Of a stretch of DNA of 14,664 nt, positions 937 to 14,490 are shown one piece after another (the first letter of the stretch is position 1; every line of letters begins with the position of its first letter). Origin of the DNA: a virus. Its lineage: Duplodnaviria; Heunggongvirae; Uroviricota; Caudoviricetes. The notes under the pieces are model-generated. The model saw only the letters and a program-made list of their open reading frames with translations, did not search any database and had not been told where the DNA came from. The stretch is from the IMG/VR virus record IMGVR_UViG_3300029745_000175, one strand, 5' to 3'. The translations under genes and the position numbers were made by a program.

Positions 937-1517
937 TTACCCTATAGGTGCTACTGGCCATTCAATATCCTGTGCAGTTGACGTATCAACACGGTTCAGC
1001 AATACCCGATACTTTTTCCAGGCTTCCAGCAACAAGGTTTCTTCCTCCGTTGCGATTTCCAGATCCACAGCATCCTGAAGCGGCGCTATATGCTCACTGG
1101 CTACCTGCATCAGGCTGTTTTTTGTTTCTTCCACCTCCCGGATCCGGAACAGTTTTTCTGCTTCCGTATCCTTCACCCAGGCTGTGCCGTTCCACTTCTG
1201 AAACTCCCCTTCCGGGGATAACCAGGTAACATTTTCCGGTAATGAGCCGAGTTCAGAAATAAATAACGCGTCCCCTGATGCCACGTCATAAACTGTTTTA
1301 CCCCGATGGTCTTCAACAAGATGCCACGATGACTCATCACTGTTGAAAACAGCCACGAAGCCAGCCGGAATATCTGGCGGTGCAATATCGGTACTGTTTG
1401 CTGGCAGACCTGTATGAGGCGGAATATATGCATCACCTTCACCAATAAATTCATTAGTTCCGGCCAGCAGATTATAAATTTTTATGGTCCGTGGTTGTTC
1501 ACTCATTCTGAATGCCA

Positions 1518-1518
<1 letters not shown>
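937..1518 (-). CDS. tfa: Tail fibre assembly protein Tfa (lambda Tfa-like, 193 aa)
   Basis: N-terminus [54 protein letters not shown] matches lambda Tfa as remembered over most of its length. Its ATG overlaps the stf stop. Confidence 0.93.
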
Positions 1519-4495
<2,977 letters not shown>

Positions 4496-4514
4496 TCATG
4501 CTCCATAAACGATA

Positions 4515-4534
4515 AAACCGCCCGGAGGCGGTTT
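4515..4534 (-). terminator. Hairpin with U-rich tail in the I-J intergenic gap (AAACCGCC tccg GGCGGTTT); possible attenuator just upstream of the J ribosome-binding site
   Basis: 8-bp perfect stem with 4-nt loop; on the minus strand it is followed by TATCGTTTATGGAGC and the J ATG at 4492. Confidence 0.35.
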
Positions 4535-4552
4535 CACATAAAACATTTTGCA

Positions 4553-5194
4553 TCAGCGACCAATCACCACAACCTGACCACCATCCCCTTCGTCTGCCGT
4601 GCTGATTTCCTGAGAAACCACACGTGACCCCACGCGCATTTCACCATACAGAACAGGCAGAACATTGCCCTGGGCAACCATGTTATCCAGTGAGGAGAAA
4701 TAGGTGTTCTGTTTGCCGTTATCCGTTGTCTGTGTACGGGGGGTTTTGGGTTTAGGAGCCAGCATCTGTGCAACACCACCAAGCGTCATCGCTGCCCCCA
4801 TAGAAAAGAGGATGTCACTGAAAGCGATACTGATTCCCGGCATCCAGATTGCCGTTGCAATCAGCGCCGCACCCAGCACCGCCTGAAACACACCACCACT
4901 TTTAGCACCCGCCAGACGCGGTACGATGTGGATCACGGCACCATTTGCCAGCGGCTCATTAAGACGGACTGATAATTCCGTTTCACCTGCATCACGCCCG
5001 GCAATGCGCACCTGATACCAGCCCTCATTCAGTTTCTGACGAAATGCGGGGATCTGCGTGGCCAGTGCCCGGATGGCTTCGGCCCCCGTTTTCACACGAA
5101 GGTCGATGCGGCGGCCAAATCGTTGTAAATCCCCGTAAAGGCAGATGCGTGCCATGCCCGGTGACGCCAGAGGGAGTGTGTGCGTCGCTGCCAT
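4553..5194 (-). CDS. I: Tail assembly protein I (lambda gpI-like, 213 aa)
   Basis: MAATHTLPLASPGMARICLYGDLQRFGRRIDLRVKTGAEAIRALATQ ... NGKQNTYFSSLDNMVAQGNVLPVLYGEMRVGSRVVSQEISTADEGDGGQVVVIGR matches lambda I. It overlaps the 3' end of K by 103 nt. Confidence 0.93.
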   Translation of the reverse strand: MAATHTLPLASPGMARICLYGDLQRFGRRIDLRVKTGAEAIRALATQIPAFRQKLNEGWYQVRIAGRDAGETELSVRLNEPLANGAVIHIVPRLAGAKSGGVFQAVLGAALIATAIWMPGISIAFSDILFSMGAAMTLGGVAQMLAPKPKTPRTQTTDNGKQNTYFSSLDNMVAQGNVLPVLYGEMRVGSRVVSQEISTADEGDGGQVVVIGR

Positions 5195-5844
5195 TTGTCG
5201 GTATACCTCTCTCGTTTGCTCAGTTGTTCAGGAATATGGTGCAGCAGCTCGCCGTCACCACAGTAAATGGCGGCATGATTCGGCACCGATGAACCAAAAC
5301 AGCACAGCAGCACATCGCCCGGTTGTGCTGATGACAACGGCACCTGATACAGCCCTGTGGCCTCCAGATTATCCAGATAGAGATTCTGACCGTTACGCCA
5401 CCAGTCATCCTCACGATGAAAATCCGGCATCTCAATCCCCGCCAGATGATAAGCATCCCGGAACAGCGTGTAACAGTCCGTCACCCCGTGCTCAAAGCGC
5501 CGCCCGGTGAGATGCGGCACACAGCGGAACTTATGAATCGCCCCCCGGCAGACCAGCCACCACGGCAAATCACTCTGCACCTGCAGCCGCCGGTCGGCCT
5601 CACTCAGCCAGGGCAGACCACCGGGGTGGCTGTGGACCAGCGCCACAATCTCACCCTGCATTTCTGCCTGCAGCCAGTCTTCCGGCGACATACGGAAATA
5701 CGCCTCCGGCTCACCGGAGATATTCACGCAGGGGAAATATCTTTCCCCCTCCGGCGTGCTTACCACGAAGCCGCACGACTCCGCTGGCGCACATCGCCGG
5801 GCGTGCGCCAGAATCGCTGATTCTGTCTCTGTCATGGGATTCAC
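5092..5844 (-). CDS. K: Tail assembly protein K (lambda gpK-like; HSHP metalloprotease-like motif and Cys/His peptidase-like motif); true start may be internal
   Basis: MTETESAILAHARRCAPAESCGFVVSTPEGERYFPC ... VHSHPGG ... matches lambda K. Its start overlaps the L stop by 4 nt (ATGA). Confidence 0.92.
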   Translation of the reverse strand: MNPMTETESAILAHARRCAPAESCGFVVSTPEGERYFPCVNISGEPEAYFRMSPEDWLQAEMQGEIVALVHSHPGGLPWLSEADRRLQVQSDLPWWLVCRGAIHKFRCVPHLTGRRFEHGVTDCYTLFRDAYHLAGIEMPDFHREDDWWRNGQNLYLDNLEATGLYQVPLSSAQPGDVLLCCFGSSVPNHAAIYCGDGELLHHIPEQLSKRERYTDKWQRRTHSLWRHRAWHASAFTGIYNDLAAASTFV

Positions 5845-6539
5845 TGCGAAAGTTTGTTAATGGAAAGGAAGCCGCCAAAGTTGCCGACGTTATTGCGAAA
5901 CTTACAGCCGCTCAGGCATTTGCTGCATTTATCCTTCGTGATATCGGACGTCGGCTGATCATATTCATCCGCGACCGCCGGACCGTGATAACCACACTCA
6001 TCACCGCGATAGGTCCAGGTGCAGGTGTTGGCCAGCATGATACGTCCCGGAAAAACAGCGCCATCCGTTTCCGTCGGCGTGGACAGTACAAAAGAGGCAC
6101 TCACCGCGCTCAGTTCGCTGCACTGCTCGATGCGCCAGCGGCTGATCACCTCCTGCTCCGGATCGGCGTCACTGTTTCCGTTGACGAAGTTCACCGCATC
6201 CAGAAAACGGGCGTAAACCTTACGCCGGACCACCGTTCCTCCGACCAGACTCTGCAGGTCTTCCGCCATCCCGGTGACCATGCCGTGCAGGTTAGAAACC
6301 GTCAGTGTCGGACGGGCAGCACTGCCCTTGCCGTTCAGTTCAAATCCCGTCCCCTGAATGGGATACGCCTGATACTGTCGCCCCTGCCAGGTGACCGGCT
6401 CACCTTTTTCGTTCTGCTCATTACAGAAAAAATAACGTTCTCCACCGACCACTGTCAGATCGATTTCCCAGAGCACCACCTGGGCTGACTGAGTGAGGCG
6501 TGTCGTCTCATGATGTGTTTCCTGTGGAATATCCTGCAT
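5841..6539 (-). CDS. L: Minor tail protein L (lambda gpL-like, 232 aa)
   Basis: 232-aa ORF with the lambda L length and N-terminus MQDIPQETHHETTRLTQSAQVVLWEIDLTVVGGERYFFCNEQNEKGEPVTWQGRQYQAYPIQGTGFELNGKG. Confidence 0.94.
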   Translation of the reverse strand: MQDIPQETHHETTRLTQSAQVVLWEIDLTVVGGERYFFCNEQNEKGEPVTWQGRQYQAYPIQGTGFELNGKGSAARPTLTVSNLHGMVTGMAEDLQSLVGGTVVRRKVYARFLDAVNFVNGNSDADPEQEVISRWRIEQCSELSAVSASFVLSTPTETDGAVFPGRIMLANTCTWTYRGDECGYHGPAVADEYDQPTSDITKDKCSKCLSGCKFRNNVGNFGGFLSINKLSQ

Positions 6540-6548
6540 CAGAGACTC

Positions 6549-6878
6549 CTATGCCACGACCTGTTCAAAATCTGCCGTTATGGTTACCCACAACGCCCCC
6601 ACGCTTGCCGACCATTTACGACAAACCACCCTGATCGGCTTCCAGTCATAAGGTGGCGTCCACTGAAATGCGCGGACGCCACCGTGCCGTTCCAGAAAGG
6701 CTTTTAAAGATGGGTGTTCACATTTACGAACACGTATCGTCACGCTGTAAATCGACAACTGGTTATTCAGTCCCGCCGCACGACGCTGTTCATAACCATC
6801 GCCCAGCTTCACTGTCACCACTTTCGGCTCTGATACCACATTCATATCCGGGCGCACTTTCCAGTGAAACGTCTCCAT
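6549..6878 (-). CDS. M: Minor tail protein M (lambda gpM-like, 109 aa)
   Basis: 109-aa ORF METFHWKV ... LGDGYEQR ... FLERHGG ... FEQVVA in the expected position upstream of L. Confidence 0.92.
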   Translation of the reverse strand: METFHWKVRPDMNVVSEPKVVTVKLGDGYEQRRAAGLNNQLSIYSVTIRVRKCEHPSLKAFLERHGGVRAFQWTPPYDWKPIRVVCRKWSASVGALWVTITADFEQVVA

Positions 6879-7078
6879 TACCGATATGCTCCACTTAACC
6901 GACCACCATCACGGGCCTGCTGTTGCATAAAGTCCGCTGCCGCTTTTTTCCCAAGGTCATAAACCACCTTCAGGGCAGCCGGACCTATCTGCCCGTTCGT
7001 GCCATCGTTATTGATCTCGATGTTGTACTGCGGGGCAAACATCGCCATACCTGAACCACCAATAAAGCCGCCAGTTGA
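6878..7078 (-). pseudogene. H: Tape measure protein H, C-terminal remnant (last 66 codons only); the rest of H and all head genes deleted
   Basis: Frame ending TAA at 6878-6880 (overlapping the M ATG) encodes STGGFIGGSGMAMFAPQYNIEINNDGTNGQIGPAALKVVYDLGKKAAADFMQQQARDGGRLSGAYR, which resembles the lambda H C-terminus (INNDGTNGQIGPAALK). An in-frame TAA lies at 7079-7081. Confidence 0.7.
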
Positions 7079-7285
7079 TTAATATTCAGCACCAGGTTTT
7101 TCAACTCATGATCCATATTTCCTCCGGAGAGCTTTAAACATGCATCGTGCGAACAACTTTAAGAAAACGCGTTCGATGTCGAACAAAAAACACTCAATTC
7201 GACATACAAAAAACAAACAACCATTAATAATCAATAAGATGCAAAGATGATGGTGGCCGATAAAAATGCAAAAACTAGCCTTTTT

Positions 7286-7305
7286 CCGCGACGCTCCCGC
7301 CCCGT
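7286..7305 (-). other. cos-like site (degenerate cosN), with putative terminase-binding repeats (cosB-like) between it and the ORF start at 7116
   Basis: Minus strand ACGGGGCGGGAGCGTCGCGG versus lambda ACGGGGCGGCGACCTCGCGG (core 12-mer 8/12 identical, flanks conserved). It lies about 175 nt upstream of a start codon, as cosN does for Nu1 in lambda. Inverted ATGTCGAA/TTCGACAT repeats occur at 7170-7210. Confidence 0.4.
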
Positions 7306-7668
7306 GGCAGGGCCCCCCACAGGGAGGACCCGACAGCCTGACAACCGTGACGAGCATCTGAAACAGAGCTTTACATAATGGCGTGGGGATAATTCAGAAG
7401 GACATCACAGCATGCCCACACAAATTAGTGTGAGTGTCCTGTTTCTTACTACGCGCAGGACTGACGAGCATGAGGGGAAAATACGCGAACCGAAATGCCT
7501 TATCTTCAGAAATGCAGCCGGCATCCGAACTGGACGATATTGTAAATTCACCTAAATACGAGGCATTGCTGTAGTTGAATTGCAGTACTGTATTAGCCTG
7601 ACAGTGACAGAATACGATATTGACTCTGTCACTTGTGAAATGGTCAGAATGGTTAGCAGTTATGGTGA

Positions 7669-7875
7669 TCAGTCAACCACCAGGGAATAATCCTTCGTAT
7701 TCTTATCGTGCTTTACTAACGCGGCCTCAATTGCCCTGAATGCTTCCAGAGATACTTGATGTTCTATACATGCAATTACAACATCCGGGTAACCCATCGA
7801 AATGGTGCTATTAAGCATAGTTTTTACACGAACCTGCTCCTGGGAGGGGGCATCAGTGTATTGATCTTTATGCAT
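7669..7875 (-). CDS. Hypothetical small protein, 68 aa (moron between gnsB and cos)
   Basis: ATG at 7875 preceded by GGAG 8 nt upstream; the translation [68 protein letters not shown] is protein-like. No family recognised. Confidence 0.5.
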
Positions 7876-8087
7876 TTTGTCGCTCCATGCGTTTGCTCTT
7901 CACTTGCGGCTAAAAATATAACGTCAAATCACTCAGCATGAAAGAGTGAAAGTTTCAGCGCGTTTCCCTTACATAATCTGTCGTTTGTATTCTCTTCAGG
8001 CATACCGGAAAGACTAGGTATTGTCACACAACCAATACCATCGACAATCGAGATTTATATCTATTCGGTAATGTTTAAATATAACAA

Positions 8088-8107
8088 AACCCCGTAAAAA
8101 CGAGGTT
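8088..8107 (-). terminator. Probable intrinsic terminator downstream of gnsB
   Basis: Minus-strand hairpin AACCTCG / CGGGGTT (one mismatch) with a 6-nt loop, followed by TTGTTATATTT; about 64 nt after the gnsB stop. Confidence 0.35.
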
Positions 8108-8170
8108 TATGGGTAATTTGTATTGTTGAATAGCATCTGATGAGAAATTGATGCTAATACTATAAACATA

Positions 8171-8344
8171 CTAGATTAAATCAATCTTGATATCATAGCT
8201 TTCAAGACCAGTCATTTTTTCCCGTGCAGTAAACTGGATACTGGTAACTTCTTTCCCGGTCTTTTTCTTAAGCTCAATGATTTTTTTTGTTATATATTCA
8301 GAAATATCTGCTTCTGTTTTTGTTTTTAACTCTTCAATGTTCAT
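8171..8344 (-). CDS. gnsB: GnsA/GnsB-family small protein, 57 aa
   Basis: MNIEELKTKTEADISEYITKKIIELKKKTGKEVTSIQFTAREKMTGLESYDIKIDLI carries the Gns signature. AAGAGGAA ribosome-binding site sits directly before tandem ATGs at 8347/8344; the longer ORF in the six-frame track (to 8437) is probably not translated. Confidence 0.82.
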   Translation of the reverse strand: MNIEELKTKTEADISEYITKKIIELKKKTGKEVTSIQFTAREKMTGLESYDIKIDLI

Positions 8345-8516
8345 CATTTCCTCTTTTAGTCTGTTATGACTTTCCTGGTACACAGTAGTGTCAATTATAT
8401 GGAGCAAACGTATAAAAGATAAGATGAAACATCGCAATAATCAACATACGACGGTCTAAATTTCACACAAACAGATAAAGATGATTATCATTTATTATCA
8501 ATACATTAGAATCAAA

Positions 8517-8747
8517 TCAATTCAAGAGTCTCATTGCTGCTTCCAGAATTTCTTCTGAAGTTACATGTCGATCCGCTGCTACATAAATGACTTTATGATC
8601 TCCGGTCAGAGATGGAAACCCTGCAGCCATTACAGTGAGGTGTGTTGTTTCGCCATTTGGATATTCACGCATGATGGTGTTAACTCCGGTCATCACTGGC
8701 ACTACCATTGCTGGTTCAGAGTTAAAAAAAACTATTATTTTTTTCAT
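8517..8747 (-). CDS. Hypothetical small protein, about 76 aa, in the position occupied by YnfN/YmcE-type genes next to gns and csp genes
   Basis: ORF MKKIIVFFNSEPAMVVPVMTGVNTIMREYPNGETTHLTVMAAGFPSLTGDHKVIYVAADRHVTSEEILEAAMRLLN. The ATG at 8747 is preferred over the GTG at 8786, which abuts a terminator hairpin. Family assignment is by synteny only. Confidence 0.5.
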   Translation of the reverse strand: MKKIIVFFNSEPAMVVPVMTGVNTIMREYPNGETTHLTVMAAGFPSLTGDHKVIYVAADRHVTSEEILEAAMRLLN

Positions 8748-8791
8748 AATGTTACCGTAATATGTGAGTATCCATCGACTAGACACTAAGC

Positions 8792-8811
8792 AAAAAAGCT
8801 CCCGAAGGAGC
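8792..8811 (-). terminator. Rho-independent terminator, minus strand (GCTCC ttcg GGAGC then TTTTTTG)
   Basis: 5-bp GC stem and tetraloop; plus strand shows AAAAAA before and CTTCATTTT after, so the U-tract is on the minus strand. Lies between cspI and the 76-aa ORF. Confidence 0.5.
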
Positions 8812-9018
8812 CTTCATTTTCACTTTCTTAAATCTAACGACAGACGGCTAACATTTAAGTATTGTGAAATATTATCAAATGTAATCATCATTGATTTACA
8901 AAAGATACATTTTGCCCCGAAAGGATTCCTGTCAGAAACATCAAAAGATGATGTTCTATACTGAGAACCATGGCAACACGGGCATCTAAAGTGAATATGG
9001 TTTGTAATATTTTCTACC

Positions 9019-9234
9019 TCAAAGTGCCACTACATGAACAGCCGCGGGGCCTTTAGGTCCGTTCTCAATACCAAATTCGACTTCCTGATTCTCAGTTAAC
9101 GTTTTGAAATCGTTGCTCTGAATAACTGAGAAATGGACAAACACATCTTTGCTACCATCTTTCGGCGTGATGAAACCAAAACCTTTTTCAGGGTTAAACC
9201 ATTTCACTAAACCAGTCATTTTGTTAGACATCAT
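9019..9234 (-). CDS. cspI: Cold shock protein, CspA family (CspI-like, 70-71 aa)
   Basis: [70 protein letters not shown] has the RNP1/RNP2 motifs (KGFGFI, VFVHF). Tandem ATGs at 9234 and 9231, with AAGG 6 nt upstream. The 360-nt upstream gap is consistent with a long csp 5' UTR. Confidence 0.9.
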
Positions 9235-9593
9235 TATTACCTTTTGAAGAAGTTAGCCCTTGGGCAGAATGGTCCGAAAAAAATATCAGAGAGAAAAACC
9301 AACAAGGAAATCTCAAGAGGTACAAATAATAAAATTATAACAATGACTGCTTCAGATAATTTTGTAACAAACCAGAACACCATTAACGCATGATTAACCA
9401 ACCATAGCAAGGATTACTTTTGTAAAGAAAAACACACGAATGAAACAATAGCTTTATTTATTAATAAAACGTGTCATTCTGTCTAATGACCTTTTATCTT
9501 ACCCTTAAGATTTCAAGGATTTTGACTCATGGAAGAGTCCTTTTTATTTAAATTTCACATTCAGCGCTAAAAATAATCCGATTTAATATTAAT

Positions 9594-10621
<1,028 letters not shown>

Positions 10622-10734
10622 GGATATTTATCAGGATTTATCGGCTTCAAATCCCCGGATATGTTAAATCTTACCTCACCAGTGATGGGCACTGGCGGGA
10701 GGAGGATGTCAATCTGATAAACACAGAGGTGACT

Positions 10735-10995
10735 ATGGATTACACAAATCTACCAAAACAAACTTTTGCTGATTTAATCGCACTCAGGCAAGCAGTCGTA
10801 GCTCTAATCAACTTGTTGCCGGAGAAGGAAAAGGAATTAGTTAAAGCGCTTCTTAACAGAACTGCCGCCGATTTTTCATCATATCCACTGACAGATGACC
10901 TTGCGGACCTTCCTGAATTAATTGCAGCGTCCGCCATTAAGCTTACTGAAGAGATTTACCCTCCTCAAAAATCTTCACAAAATTCCTGCGAGTAA
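10735..10995 (+). CDS. Hypothetical protein, 86 aa, on the opposite strand inside the lysis cassette; no family recognised
   Basis: ATG at 10735 with AGAGG 5 nt upstream; protein-like helical sequence MDYTNLPKQTFADLIALRQAVVALINLLPEKEKELVKALLNRTAADFSSYPLTDDLADLPELIAASAIKLTEEIYPPQKSSQNSCE; strong terminator 20 nt after the TAA. The six-frame track starts it at GTG 10729. Confidence 0.6.
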   Translation: MDYTNLPKQTFADLIALRQAVVALINLLPEKEKELVKALLNRTAADFSSYPLTDDLADLPELIAASAIKLTEEIYPPQKSSQNSCE

Positions 10996-11494
10996 CTTCA
11001 ATGCAATAATCGTAAAACGCCGCAAACTGCTCATCGCGGCGTTTTTTTTCATCTTCAGAAGGGATCAGCACCGACAATTTTTTATTCAGATCAGCGACGC
11101 TGCCCTCCAGTTTTTCAATGGGCGATTCAATATCATCTTTTTCTGACCGCAATGCCGTCGGTGGCGTCTTCAGAGAACCAGTAATTCTTCCCGGTAGCTT
11201 TCCTTTGTAGGTTATCCACACATTCTGCGCCTCTAAAATTATGGGGCGCTTTTCCGGCGACTGCTCATCCCCTACACATAACCCGGCAGCAACATCCAGG
11301 AATACCTGTCTGATTCTCATTCTGGCTGCTGCCTCATAAAACTCCAGCGCGGCACCTTCAACACGGTCCAGCGAGATGTCCAGGTCAAAAATTTCACCGT
11401 CAAAGCGTTTTTTGTCCCGTAAGGCTACAGTTACCGCCACTTTATTCTCAAAATTGCGGACTCCTTTCACAACCAGTTCATAGTCTTGTGTCAT
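10943..11494 (-). CDS. YdfR-like protein (DUF1327-type N-terminal region by recollection) with a C-terminal extension of about 115 aa; 183 aa from ATG 11494, or 190 aa from 11515
   Basis: MTQDYELVVKGVRNFENKVAVTVALRDKKRFDGEIFDLDISLDRVEGAALEFYEAAARMRIRQVF resembles the short YdfR found between holin and endolysin in Qin-type prophages. The ATG at 11494 follows the holin stop with a GAGAG-type ribosome-binding site. The last 17 codons overlap the plus-strand gene. Confidence 0.6.
   Translation of the reverse strand: MTQDYELVVKGVRNFENKVAVTVALRDKKRFDGEIFDLDISLDRVEGAALEFYEAAARMRIRQVFLDVAAGLCVGDEQSPEKRPIILEAQNVWITYKGKLPGRITGSLKTPPTALRSEKDDIESPIEKLEGSVADLNKKLSVLIPSEDEKKRRDEQFAAFYDYCIEVTRRNFVKIFEEGKSLQ
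11014..11049 (+). terminator. Rho-independent terminator for the 86-aa plus-strand gene (AAAACGCCGC, 12-nt loop, GCGGCGTTTTTTTT); lies inside the coding region of the minus-strand YdfR-like ORF
   Basis: Stem 11014-11023 pairs with 11036-11045 and is followed by a run of eight T ending at 11049. Confidence 0.6.
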
Positions 11495-11498
11495 TGGA

Positions 11499-11714
11499 TT
11501 ACTCTCTTCTCGCAACCTTACGCCTGTCTTCTTTAATCTTGAAATAAAGGTTTGTCAGATACGTCAGCAGGCCAAAAACCAGACTACCCAGCACACCGAT
11601 TGCAGCCCACTGTGACGGAGTTACTTTATCGAGTAACTGCAATGCCCAGAAACCAGCATTACCAGCCGATGTGCCATAGGCGATACCTGTTGTTAACTTA
11701 TCCATTGATTTCAT
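11499..11714 (-). CDS. S: Class II holin / pinholin (phage 21 S-like, 71 aa) with dual-start motif MKSM
   Basis: [71 protein letters not shown]: two transmembrane segments (the first weakly hydrophobic, SAR-like), a charged C-terminus, and start codons at codons 1 and 4 as in S21 71/68. Confidence 0.9.
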
Positions 11715-11932
11715 ATCCTCACCCCGATGTACACAGATGGTGCAATATGTTTGAAAAGATCGGAGTCTATGGGTTAGTTTTTATAGCAAACGTTGTTCTC
11801 AACGGCGCTAAAAAACAGACACATTAAAAATGTGGGTAATTATTTTAAAAGAAAATCATATATTAAATAATAATACGAGATATGTTTTCATATTTAGTGT
11901 ACTGTATACGGCCATTTATACAGGAAAAGCCT

Positions 11933-12103
11933 ATGTCAGAACGTAAAGACTCAAAATCACGCCGTAATTATCTCGTTAAATGTTCCTGCCCAAACTGCAC
12001 CCAAGAGTCAGAACACAGTTTTTCAAGAGTACAAAAAGGTGCCCTTTTGATCTGCCCTCATTGCAACAAAGTATTCCAGACAAATCTTAAAGCTGTAGCT
12101 TGA
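11933..12103 (+). CDS. Small zinc-ribbon protein, 56 aa (CxxC ... CxxC), moron between holin and cspB
   Basis: MSERKDSKSRRNYLVKCSCPNCTQESEHSFSRVQKGALLICPHCNKVFQTNLKAVA; AGGAAA upstream of ATG 11933. The six-frame track extends it upstream to 11882, but that N-terminus lacks a ribosome-binding site. Confidence 0.55.
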   Translation: MSERKDSKSRRNYLVKCSCPNCTQESEHSFSRVQKGALLICPHCNKVFQTNLKAVA

Positions 12104-12162
12104 TTGATTTTATTCGTAACAAGTATTTTTTATATTTTAATAACATATTTAAAGCAGATAAT

Positions 12163-12188
12163 AAAAAACCCGCCTGAGCGGGTTTAAT
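12163..12188. terminator. Bidirectional intrinsic terminator between the zinc-ribbon gene (+) and cspB (-)
   Basis: AAAAAACCCGC ctga GCGGGTTT: stem 12168-12173 / 12178-12183, with an A-tract before and a T-tract after, so it reads as a terminator in both orientations. Confidence 0.55.
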
Positions 12189-12466
12189 ATTGTGGTACTT
12201 TTTGTGGGAGTCATCCACTTACGCACTTTGTTTTGCTATGCCAGCAGTTAGCTTCTGCTGTAAAACTATTCATGCAGCAAACCTGCACTTCACCACAATG
12301 GTTAGCATACTTTTCCTGATTAAGTTATTGCCAAATATGCTGGCCATTGTTTCATGTATTGGACCTCCTTACTATTTATTAAAGAGATCCAATATTCACC
12401 ACTCTGTCTGTATCTCCACTCAGGCATCAGCCTTCTTCGTTATCGTATACAGACAAACTATGAATT

Positions 12467-12682
12467 TTAATCAGTAATTATGACATTTGCTGCTGCAGGA
12501 CCTTTAGCACCACTCTCTACAGAGAAGGTAACCTTTTGACCTTCAAATAAGGTTCGAAAATTATCATTCTGAATCGCAGAAAAATGCACAAACACATCTT
12601 TACTACCATCAACAGGAGAAATAAAGCCAAAACCTTTATCAGCGTTAAACCATTTTACTAAACCAGTCATTTTATTTGACAT
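12467..12682 (-). CDS. cspB: Cold shock protein, CspA family (CspB-like, 71 aa)
   Basis: [67 protein letters not shown]...; ATG at 12682; divergent from cspF with a 300-bp shared upstream region. Confidence 0.9.
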
Positions 12683-12982
12683 TCTACATTCCTTAACTTG
12701 AGCCTTTCGGCATAAATGGCTTGTATAACAGAAACGACTTCGTACTTAATTGGAGAGACTCAAAGAAGGAATAAGTGAATAACACCTGAAATGAGAACTG
12801 CTTTAGTAAACTACTTCGTATATCGTCTGTTCTTCAAACCGACGCAATCATTAACGCATAGTTGAACATATGAAGCAATGTTTATTTTAGACATCCAGCC
12901 ATCTTCAACCCCATCAAAAAACTATAGCTTTCTTCAGGAACGTGTGTATAGTGCGCCCAGTTATCAGTATTAAGGAATTTTT

Positions 12983-13195
12983 TTGTCCCGTAAAATGACA
13001 GGAATTGTCAAAACCTTTGACGGCAAAAGCGGCAAGGGTCTTATCACCCCATCCGATGGTCGTATCGATGTCCAGCTTCATGTTTCAGCGCTCAATCTCC
13101 GCGATGCAGAAGAAATTACCACCGGATTACGCGTGGAATTTTGCCGGATAAATGGTCTGCGTGGCCCTTCAGCTGCCAATGTTTACCTTTCATGA
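12983..13195 (+). CDS. cspF: Cold-shock-domain protein, CspF/CspH-like (70 aa; lacks the canonical aromatic RNP residues)
   Basis: [70 protein letters not shown]. Apparent TTG start at 12983 with AAGGA 6 nt upstream; an alternative ATG lies at 12995. Confidence 0.85.
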
Positions 13196-13249
13196 GCTAT
13201 ATTAAAGCTTTAATTTCAGGCCCCATCGAATCAAACATGGAGAGTTTTC

Positions 13250-13339
13250 ATGAATAACCCCGTCTGTCTTGATGACTGGTTGATTGGCTTTAAAAGCTTA
13301 TGCTGTACTTTGACCGTAATAGCTCTGCTAATAATGTAA
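13250..13339 (+). CDS. Candidate small protein, 29 aa ([29 protein letters not shown]), downstream of cspF
   Basis: Strong Shine-Dalgarno GGAGAG 5 nt before ATG 13250; TAA at 13337; lies between cspF and the terminator at 13476-13501. Confidence 0.3.
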
Positions 13340-13475
13340 TATGCAGACTCATTGTATCTAGGGACATAGTACTGGAAGAAAACATTTTAAACATCAGGCA
13401 AAGTCACCCGATAAATAATAAGTAAACAAACATGAATCCCGGAATGAGATTCAACATCTCTATTACCCTATTTAA

Positions 13476-13501
13476 AGCACAAAAACCCGCTCATCAGCGG
13501 G
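13476..13501 (-). terminator. tR'-like intrinsic terminator ending a short PR' transcript of about 65 nt (6S-RNA analogue); the hairpin is also terminator-like on the plus strand, downstream of cspF
   Basis: Minus strand CCCGC tgatga GCGGG followed by TTTTTGTGCTTT; the stem is extendable through flanking A/T pairs. Confidence 0.65.
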
Positions 13502-13538
13502 TTTTCTACTTTTTCTTAACGTCGGGTATATAAAGCCC

Positions 13539-13579
13539 ATCGTTGAAAAAATTTTATCCATATTTTTTGAAAAATGCAA
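13539..13579 (-). promoter_or_regulatory. Late promoter PR' with a promoter-proximal sigma70 pause element (qut-like region) directly downstream of Q
   Basis: Minus strand -35 TTGCAT (13579-13574), 17-bp spacer, -10 TAAAAT (13556-13551), predicted +1 A at 13544, then AACGATGGG (13544-13536), the same initial transcribed motif as lambda PR' (AACGATGGG), with a second -10-like TTTATATA about 15-25 nt downstream. Confidence 0.6.
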
Positions 13580-13610
13580 GCATTACGTCGCCATCTTCGG
13601 CGAAAATCAT

Positions 13611-14264
13611 TTATCTCGTCACTTTTCTTAATTGCACCTCAGCATATGCTTCTTCCTGCCAGCACTTTGTAACCAGTTTATCAATGACATCTGCATATCC
13701 TTTGTACCACTGATAATCAGTCAGGTCTGGTACCAGCTTCTGGACATGACACCGCGCCAGTGTCGTTGGTAAACGACTAAACCGGTTTCCATTGCAACGC
13801 CCACAAATCTTATAAACAGGCGCGCCATGAAGCCGGGTCCTTTTTTCATCCAGGACAATACCTTTACCCTTACACCCTCTGCACGCTGTGCTGACTTCTC
13901 CCTTACCATGACAATGCTGACATAGTTCCTTCACCCACTCTTCCTTGATAACAGACTCCCCGCTTCTGGAGTATTTCACCACTTCGCGCAATACATTATG
14001 AAATCCAGTACCAGCACAAGGCTCACAGCGAGCCTTACTTGCCGCAGACCTGGAATAATCAGCAAAGGCAAAACTCACAAGGTAAGGGATGATCTGTAAC
14101 CGGATTTCTTCACTCAATTTGTTCAATGTCGGGTTATCCAGTGCCATCGCGTAATTGAGCAGACCTTCAATCGCAAACTGAGGATCCTGAACGCCAGCTT
14201 TTGCCAGGAATAAGGCAAACCCAAGCGGTGCTTTCGACTGCACCATCCCCTGCGCAGCCATCAC
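13611..14264 (-). CDS. Late-gene antitermination protein Q-like (QuuQ-type, four CxxCxGxG zinc-finger-like repeats), 217 aa from GTG 14264 / ATG 14261; possibly N-terminally truncated
   Basis: CEPCAGTG, CQHCHGKG, CRGCKGKG and CGRCNGN motifs; position immediately upstream of PR'/tR' and the lysis cassette. No good ribosome-binding site; an in-frame TGA lies 31 codons upstream (14358-14360). Confidence 0.75.
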   Translation of the reverse strand: MMAAQGMVQSKAPLGFALFLAKAGVQDPQFAIEGLLNYAMALDNPTLNKLSEEIRLQIIPYLVSFAFADYSRSAASKARCEPCAGTGFHNVLREVVKYSRSGESVIKEEWVKELCQHCHGKGEVSTACRGCKGKGIVLDEKRTRLHGAPVYKICGRCNGNRFSRLPTTLARCHVQKLVPDLTDYQWYKGYADVIDKLVTKCWQEEAYAEVQLRKVTR

Positions 14265-14490
14265 ATCCGTAATCGTTAAACCACCTGACCAGGGTGCAAC
14301 GATGAGGGCATTTATGGAGCCGCGACAAAGTGTGGTGCCGTAACTGGCTAAGTGCTCTCAGCGTTGTGGTAATCCGCGAAATGGCGCGGCGGTAAGTATG
14401 GCGGGGTTACTCTTTCCCCGTTGAGGACACCGGATTGTCAGGTTGACCATACGCCTGAGTGACAACCCCACCACAACAGCCACTGCTTTG

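Follow-up and report, generated by a model that had tools for sequence, protein, structure and literature searches.

The window considered here is a 14,664-nucleotide stretch of DNA from a tailed virus (Caudoviricetes), filed in IMG/VR as record IMGVR_UViG_3300029745_000175. On its minus strand, between positions 7320 and 6878, a sequence resembling the cohesive-end site (cos) of phage lambda is followed by the start of a small terminase gene, and this start runs after a few codons into the end of a tail gene. The locus raises the question of which phage this cos belongs to, whether the site is whole or damaged, and how one end of the packaging genes came to lie against one end of the tail genes. 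It almost certainly belongs to a defective lambdoid prophage of Escherichia coli, Qin/Tritos-like, of which it is the packaging end, and in which one deletion of about 12.3 kb at a TAT microhomology joined the small terminase gene (terS) to the tape-measure gene (H) and left cos undamaged.

Read on the minus strand, the genes of the window follow in the order 'Q, cspB, S, ydfR, R, Rz, cspI, ynfN, gnsB, cos, terS'::'H, M, L, K, I, J'::'stf, tfa. Collinear counterparts of the window are the Qin prophage of E. coli K-12, phage Tritos, and an intact prophage that E. coli L1PEag1 carries at its Qin locus. Positions 7058-14288 are 99.86% identical to L1PEag1, and positions 2027-7064 resume 12,285 bp further along in the same genome. 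Over its tail half, the identity of the window to L1PEag1 is only 94.9%, and the true intact ancestor is therefore a mosaic relative, rather than L1PEag1 itself. Positions 1-960 may point to the right arm of a prophage residing at the lambda attachment locus. The element has the lambdoid gene order and has lost essential lytic genes through three deletions, as a Qin-like defective prophage. The deletions have taken the immunity and replication region with the 5' end of Q, the interval from terS through H, and the interval from the 3' end of J through the 5' end of stf.

The small terminase gene is marked by a Shine-Dalgarno sequence, GGAGG, at 7125-7121, read from the sequence and found alike in intact relatives, and by an ATG at 7116-7114, which opens MDHELKNLVLNI. 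The preliminary description had taken this pair of signals for the start of a small terminase gene, and the intact counterparts bear this out. In L1PEag1 the corresponding ATG starts a protein of 163 residues annotated as a member of the DUF1441 family (WP_089636108.1), encoded directly upstream of a 2.1-kb large terminase gene, which is followed by the W and portal genes. The protein matches Pfam DUF1441 (PF07278; 1.9e-44) and PHROG 141, 'terminase small subunit' (1.2e-76), and homologues in phi458, mEp460 and Ayreon are annotated as small terminases. A sequence search with the DUF1441 protein matched no solved structure. The segment of terS left in the window (terS', minus strand, 7062-7116) agrees at every base (100%) with the 5' ends of WP_089636108.1 and of its PhiR47_1 counterpart, and encodes the residues MDHELKNLVLNINQLAAL. 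By base-level comparison it comprises 18 codons, rather than the approximately 12 estimated at first. As 18 of 163 codons are left, and no large terminase gene (terL) is found in the window, terS' is a gene fragment, not a complete terS beside a gpA-like terL.

The tail side of the join is the end of the tape-measure gene. The remnant ('H, minus strand, 6878-7063) is 100% identical to bases 12368-12554 of phage Ayreon, and matches the extreme C-terminal end of the tape-measure PHROGs 6747, 1716 and 24. A full-length H, which measures about 1,000 codons and lies between G/T and M, is not found in the window, where only the last 61 codons and the stop codon are left. This remnant had been described as 66 codons in a frame other than that of terS; the frame stands, and the length is corrected. 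At the scar, this tail of H is untranslatable. Gene M, for a minor tail protein, is intact (minus strand, 6549-6878), its start overlapping the stop of H in the sequence TAATG. L, K and I are also intact downstream of M, and the region is collinear with Tritos and L1PEag1. The Pfam families Phage_min_tail, Phage_tail_L, NLPC_P60 and Lambda_tail_I were assigned to the identical genes of four other contigs (L006-L009).

Compared base by base with its two parents, the window is identical to intact terS up to and including position 7062, and to the 3' end of Ayreon H from position 7064 on; the two identities overlap in a 3-bp microhomology, TAT, present in both parents at 7062-7064 (minus strand). 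The parental sequences at the crossover read CTGGCGGCTTTAT|CTGG in terS and TGTGGCGGATAT|TGGTGG in H, and an imperfect TGGCGG repeat is common to both a few bases upstream. The junction had been placed near 7080, but identity to terS extends through 7062. H-like sequence is absent upstream of 7078, where its presence would have spoken against a scar, and H begins further downstream than had been supposed. Alignment to the intact relatives L1PEag1 and Ayreon defined the endpoints of the deletion. Relative to L1PEag1, the window is collinear up to a gap of 12,285 bp and again beyond it; relative to Ayreon, the gap is 12,290 bp. Both agree with the single loss of about 12 kb, from the body of terS through most of H, that had been proposed from the sequence of the window. 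The lost block carries codons 19-163 of terS, terL, W, the portal gene, the protease/capsid gene, the head-tail connector and head completion genes, Z/U/V-like tail and tail tube genes, G/T (tail chaperones), and 94% of H. Since both terminase subunits and the portal, capsid and tail tube genes are gone, the element is unable to package DNA or to build virions.

A single illegitimate-recombination event at TAT, adjoined by the imperfect TGGCGG repeat, most probably removed about 12.3 kb, from codon 19 of the DUF1441-type terS to codon -62 of H. The simplest account is a microhomology-mediated deletion in the integrated prophage. The join also created an ORF of 43 codons (minus strand, 6985-7116), made by 18 codons of terS and 25 out-of-frame codons of H, which is now headed by the intact ribosome-binding site of terS. 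The fusion ORF itself is presumably meaningless.

The junction is not confined to the window. Searches with the junction 33-mer CAACTGGCGGCTTTATTGGTGGTTCAGGTATGG or with the fusion ORF found the same join in six other public contigs from metagenomes and read archives (L005-L010), deriving from several samples. The 33-mer occurs in one JGI/ENA metagenome contig, in which 3,459 bp align to the window at 100% identity. The exact 43-residue fusion product has been called on 7 public contigs, again from several samples, and four of these are 99.97-100% identical to the window. Contig L006 represents a second haplotype, 98.4% identical, whose differences from the window flank the junction, the nearest lying at 6941 and 7319, and which features a different, larger deletion in J. 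Being carried by several contigs and by the diverged L006, the scar is a heritable allele, in at least one lineage older than later decay. The 33-mer was not found in GTDB species-representative genomes. It is extremely improbable that the join is an artefact of assembly or a chimera, with no biological deletion behind it: lambdoid prophages are repeat-rich and often misassembled, and no junction-spanning record was found by megablast among 5,426 complete RefSeq E. coli genomes, but the exact junction recurs in six contigs from separate samples, one of them a haplotype diverged on both sides, and a chimera between repeats would need long homology, whereas this join shares 3 bp only.

The element is a Qin/Tritos-like remnant that has been deleted more than once, and it bears two further scars of the same microhomology kind. 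The one at 14288/14287 has an overlap of 2 bp and lacks 6,824 bp relative to strain GPEC1222; the lost block comprises the repressor, cro and replication region and the first 75 nt of Q. At about 2033-2027, 822 codons of J are joined to the last 169 codons of the side tail fibre gene. The terS-H scar is likewise ordinary prophage decay.

The cosN region (minus strand, 7286-7305) lies between Rz/gnsB and terS, is oriented as terS, and occurs once in the window. The 20-mer reported at these positions in the preliminary description was found as described. On the minus strand, 7305-7286 reads ACGGGGCGGGAGCGTCGCGG and matches the cosN region of lambda, ACGGGGCGGCGACCTCGCGG, at 16 of 20 positions, all four differences falling inside the 12-nt core of the cohesive end; the expected number of equally good matches to lambda cosN in the window by chance is 0.01-0.04. 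The predicted 12-nt cohesive end, GGGCGGGAGCGT, spans 7302-7291. The 12-mer and the next 21 bases are identical to bases 1-33 of the records of phages cdtI (AB285204) and Tritos (OV696610), and both records end in CTGCCACG, as does the window upstream of 7302. The virion-derived assembly mEp460_4F5 begins 5 nt upstream of the cos site. Ayreon was opened arbitrarily at terS, according to the published note on its record, and the record ends are therefore uninformative on cos.

Of 5,426 complete E. coli genomes, 2,122 contain this cos type. At least 119 IMG/VR contigs have it as well; they are mostly prophage regions excised from isolate genomes, with cos in internal position, and hence do not tell the physical ends. 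A full-length terS lies downstream of the same 12-mer in 92 of about 106 IMG/VR loci. In about 13% of the IMG/VR loci with this cosN, terS is truncated or missing, and stubs beside cos are thus a common outcome of decay. As suggested by the record termini and by analogy with lambda, GGGCGGGAGCGT is likely to be the physical cohesive end of a very widespread group of lambdoid phages of E. coli. No paper with experimentally determined cohesive ends for this group was found in the accessible literature; a full-text search for the 12-mer returned unrelated eukaryotic papers only, and cos goes undiscussed in the Tritos paper.

Two explanations had been offered for the departure of the core from lambda, decay and a different specificity, and only the latter holds. 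That the site is a lambda cos which gained four substitutions after the death of the prophage would fit its location in a dead prophage and the 4 of 12 core positions that differ, yet this has hardly any probability left, given that the identical 12-mer and flanks open the cdtI and Tritos records, that the 12-mer precedes a full-length terS in most loci, and that the stretch from cos to the ATG aligns without differences to the intact L1PEag1 prophage, the whole 443-nt left flank being 99.8% identical, with one position differing. Judged from sequence, the site is the undamaged, normal cos of the large cdtI/Tritos/mEp460-type phage group, with the layout of lambda and another core.

Candidate accessory elements lie on either side of cosN. 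About 23 nt upstream of the predicted nick lies the heptamer GGGTCCT (minus strand, 7325-7331), which we take to be the cosQ of lambda. Lambda, cdtI, Tritos, phi458, mEp460 and PhiR47_1 all carry the heptamer in the corresponding position. When the IMG/VR loci with this cosN are sorted into their three groups, it does not vary at all in two of them and varies very little in the third. Downstream of cosN, at 7229-7241 (minus strand), a putative site for IHF reads AATCAATAAGATG on the plus strand, with one mismatch to the consensus WATCAANNNNTTR. In phi458, mEp460, cdtI and Tritos, a perfect IHF consensus lies equally far from the left end (+62 to +64), although the flanking sequences differ, and IHF would be expected to bind at 7229-7241.

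Further downstream, the inverted repeat ATGTCGAA/TTCGACAT (minus strand, 7176-7205) is a candidate cosB. Inverted repeats had been noticed after cosN from the start, and a perfect one is present, with 8-nt arms at 7205-7198 and 7183-7176 separated by 14 nt, though an equally good inverted repeat arises in about 4% of shuffles of the interval from cos to the ATG, so that alone it is only marginally non-random. A comparison of 113 IMG/VR loci that have this cosN distinguished three downstream modules, here called the window type (in 17), the mEp460 type (in 56) and the cdtI type (in 36), and each of the three cosB modules is paired with its own DUF1441 variant. All 17 loci of the window type have the inverted repeat unchanged, the mEp460 type preserves it only in part (half), and the cdtI type lacks it. 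This pattern fits, without proving, a subgroup-specific binding site for the small terminase. Between the inverted repeats of the window and mEp460 types one pair covaries and two break, which is too weak as evidence of compensatory change.

No Rfam family was found in 6878-7400, and promoter and terminator scans gave results at or below the chance level set by shuffles. A hairpin of terminator type, at 7185-7170, shares bases with the right arm of the inverted repeat, but the terminator scan as a whole yields no more than shuffles do. An ORF of 83 codons at 7106-7357 looks spurious, as it spans cos, has no Pfam or PHROG match, and falls where the subgroups differ by indels.

The cos region can be compared with that of lambda (NC_001416) module by module. 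In both, GGGTCCT lies about 23 nt upstream, the 12-nt core is preceded by ACG and followed by CGCGG, and an AT-rich region with an IHF-like site leads to a co-oriented small terminase gene. The start of the 12-mer is separated from the ATG by 186 nt, while the distance to nu1 in lambda is about 190 nt (190-191; the start is at +186 here and at about +191 in lambda). The large terminase of the intact relatives of the window is named 'terminase gpA endonuclease subunit' in RefSeq, and has been likened by depositors to lambda A/GpA. In contrast, the core differs at 4 of 12 positions (GGGCGGGAGCGT here, GGGCGGCGACCT in lambda), the cosB sequence is unrelated, and the small terminase is of the DUF1441/PHROG 141 type, to which the nu1 region of lambda has no alignment at the DNA level.

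Closer relatives are cdtI, Tritos, mEp460/Ayreon/phi458, PhiR47_1 and the L1PEag1 prophage, which share with the window cosN and about 33 identical left-end bases. PhiR47_1 and L1PEag1 have in common with the window also cosB and the 5' end of terS, and Ayreon and mEp460 are 99.5-100% identical to it in the H-M region. Unlike the window, all these retain the full block of about 12.3 kb from terS to H. Some are active phages: Tritos, a prophage of E. coli LF82, produces virions and plaques (PMC9928086), and spontaneous induction is known for phi458 (PMC9701743).

The join itself has a parallel in Qin of K-12, a lambdoid remnant in which the region of Q, lysis and moron genes and a packaging-gene stub are joined to late tail genes (the nohA-stfQ join). 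The sequences of cspB, essQ, rrrQ, rzpQ, cspI, ynfN, gnsB and stfQ/tfaQ are 91-95% identical in Qin and in the window, and ydfR is also among the collinear genes. The two differ in that Qin features a stub of the lambda Nu1 type (nohA) and has lost everything up to stf, whereas the window features a DUF1441-type stub and has lost terS through H only, retaining M, L, K, I and most of J. The DLP12-like remnant of FORC_081, at the lambda attachment locus, in which terL' is joined to a tail fibre gene, is an object of the same kind.

A cos without a terminase is found also in cos-type PICIs (SaPIbov5 and E. coli PICIs), which are non-autonomous, carry a cos of helper type and have no terminase of their own. 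Such satellites bring an integrase of their own, together with modules for regulation and replication, and are of a length that fits packaging. Unlike them, the window has no satellite integrase, regulation or replication modules, and is plainly a deleted prophage. No PICI-like organization was found within the window, which holds late-operon remnants and morons only, the ends of the element lying outside it, and every segment of the window aligns to late regions of ordinary prophages.

It may still be asked whether the remnant has been kept as something useful, the cos allowing helpers with the same terminase to move the chromosome or the remnant, or the 43-residue peptide hindering an incoming terminase. 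In favour, there is no damage to cos, to the sequences around it or to the terS ribosome-binding site, the reading frames of M, L, K and I are still open, the junction has persisted in two haplotypes, and E. coli very commonly harbours phages with this cosN. The remnant is, however, at most a few changes away from its intact relatives, so that recency alone explains its intactness; three independent deletions, the truncation of Q included, point to neutral decay, genes for an integrase, replication or capsid redirection typical of satellites are missing from the window, and packaging of lambda type requires a second cos to terminate, as textbooks have it. Selection for usefulness is accordingly improbable, and deletion followed by neutral decay of the prophage is preferred.

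A decayed prophage may nevertheless carry a working site. The stranded cos may be a substrate for E. coli phages with the same cosN (the Tritos, PhiR47_1 and mEp460 types), and hence a launch point for cos-initiated lateral transduction, though we regard this as unlikely. If a phage of the same type infected the cell or already resided in it, its terminase could cut the chromosomal cos, and packaging would then proceed from the cut in one direction, to the tail-gene side, as it does from a lambda prophage that has not been excised. From a single chromosomal cos, lambda packages in one direction without proper termination, as a second cos is needed to end packaging. If the site does work, infection or induction would lead to packaging from 7302 through the tail genes and into the flanking host DNA.

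Beyond annotation the locus matters little, and it touches no open question. It provides exact endpoints for one more deletion in prophage decay, and illustrates the combination of one cosN with three different cosB/small-terminase modules. For annotation, terS' and 'H are to be treated as pseudogenes, and neither the 43-codon fusion nor the ORF that spans cos should be taken for a real gene.

A second deletion scar in the window lies at 14287-14288, minus strand. By comparison with E. coli GPEC1222, 6,824 bp are absent at this point, and the join features a 2-bp overlap, TC. The genes lost encode a LexA-family repressor, an HTH protein, YmfL, Ash, PerC, RusA, KilA-N and DUF968 proteins. Also removed were 75 nt at the start of Q/ydfT, the antiterminator gene, and the residual Q ORF (13611-14264, minus strand) is therefore 5'-truncated.

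A third scar, on the same strand, joins J to the side tail fibre gene (stf) at about 2027-2033, with an overlap of about 1 bp. J ends here after about 822 codons, and is followed by the last 169 codons of stf, found as an ORF with a Phage_fiber repeat (1518-2027, minus strand), and next by tfa (937-1518, minus strand). In L006, a public contig representing a second, diverged haplotype of the element, J is retained for about 56 codons only, and precedes a longer stf than that of the window (L006 8187-9687). The junction between the small terminase gene terS and the tape-measure gene H is common to L006 and the window, though the J-stf joins differ; the deletions between J and stf must therefore have arisen independently of the terS::H deletion, and after it.

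The right end of the window, residues 1-960, is 100% identical to residues 16001-16960 of the E. coli FORC_081 locus (L025). In that strain a defective DLP12-like prophage occupies the lambda attachment locus on the bioA-ybhB side, and the matching residues belong to its right arm. The identity hints that the element of the window may occupy the same locus, despite its Qin-like late region. Part of the 1-960 segment is matched in 5,422 of 5,426 E. coli genomes, and 272 genomes cover at least 80% of the whole segment. The DLP12-like remnant of FORC_081 has a scar of its own, terL'::'tail-fibre.

Two Rfam cspA-thermoregulator matches (8973-9388 and 12404-12843, minus strand) and an IS009 match within the tail fibre assembly gene (977-1175, minus strand) are expected in Qin-like prophages. 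The former span leaders and genes of cspI-like and cspB-like cold-shock genes. Neither K-12 Qin nor Tritos gives a match to the stretch between the ydfR-like and lysozyme genes (about 10632-11288). E. coli L1PEag1 does contain the stretch, with an 86-aa hypothetical ORF on the opposite strand and a partial ydfR in its annotation. The ydfR-like ORF is long in the window (190 codons), and the identical gene in L006 is assigned to DUF1327.

An 83-codon ORF (7106-7357, minus strand) spans cosN. Its counterparts in PhiR47_1 and mEp460 are labelled as hypothetical proteins, searches of Pfam and PHROG gave no match, and indels separate subgroups within the stretch. This ORF is probably not a gene.

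Among about 106 IMG/VR prophage loci carrying the cosN of the window, the small terminase ORF is truncated (54-109 aa) or lacks a canonical start in about 14 (L044, L086, L087, L090, L093, L120, L121, L143 and six others). Independent scars immediately after cos are therefore frequent. Comparison of window residues 7117-7302 with IMG/VR loci L026-L143 revealed that a single cosN, along with about 33 bases, is paired with three unrelated cosB regions, the candidate binding sites of the small terminase, and that three diverged DUF1441 small terminases accompany these regions in 17, 56 and 36 loci, respectively. Measured from the left end, the mosaic boundary is about 33-35 nt inward. The pattern suggests that nicking specificity, residing in the large subunit, and cosB recognition, residing in the small subunit, have been swapped as separate modules.
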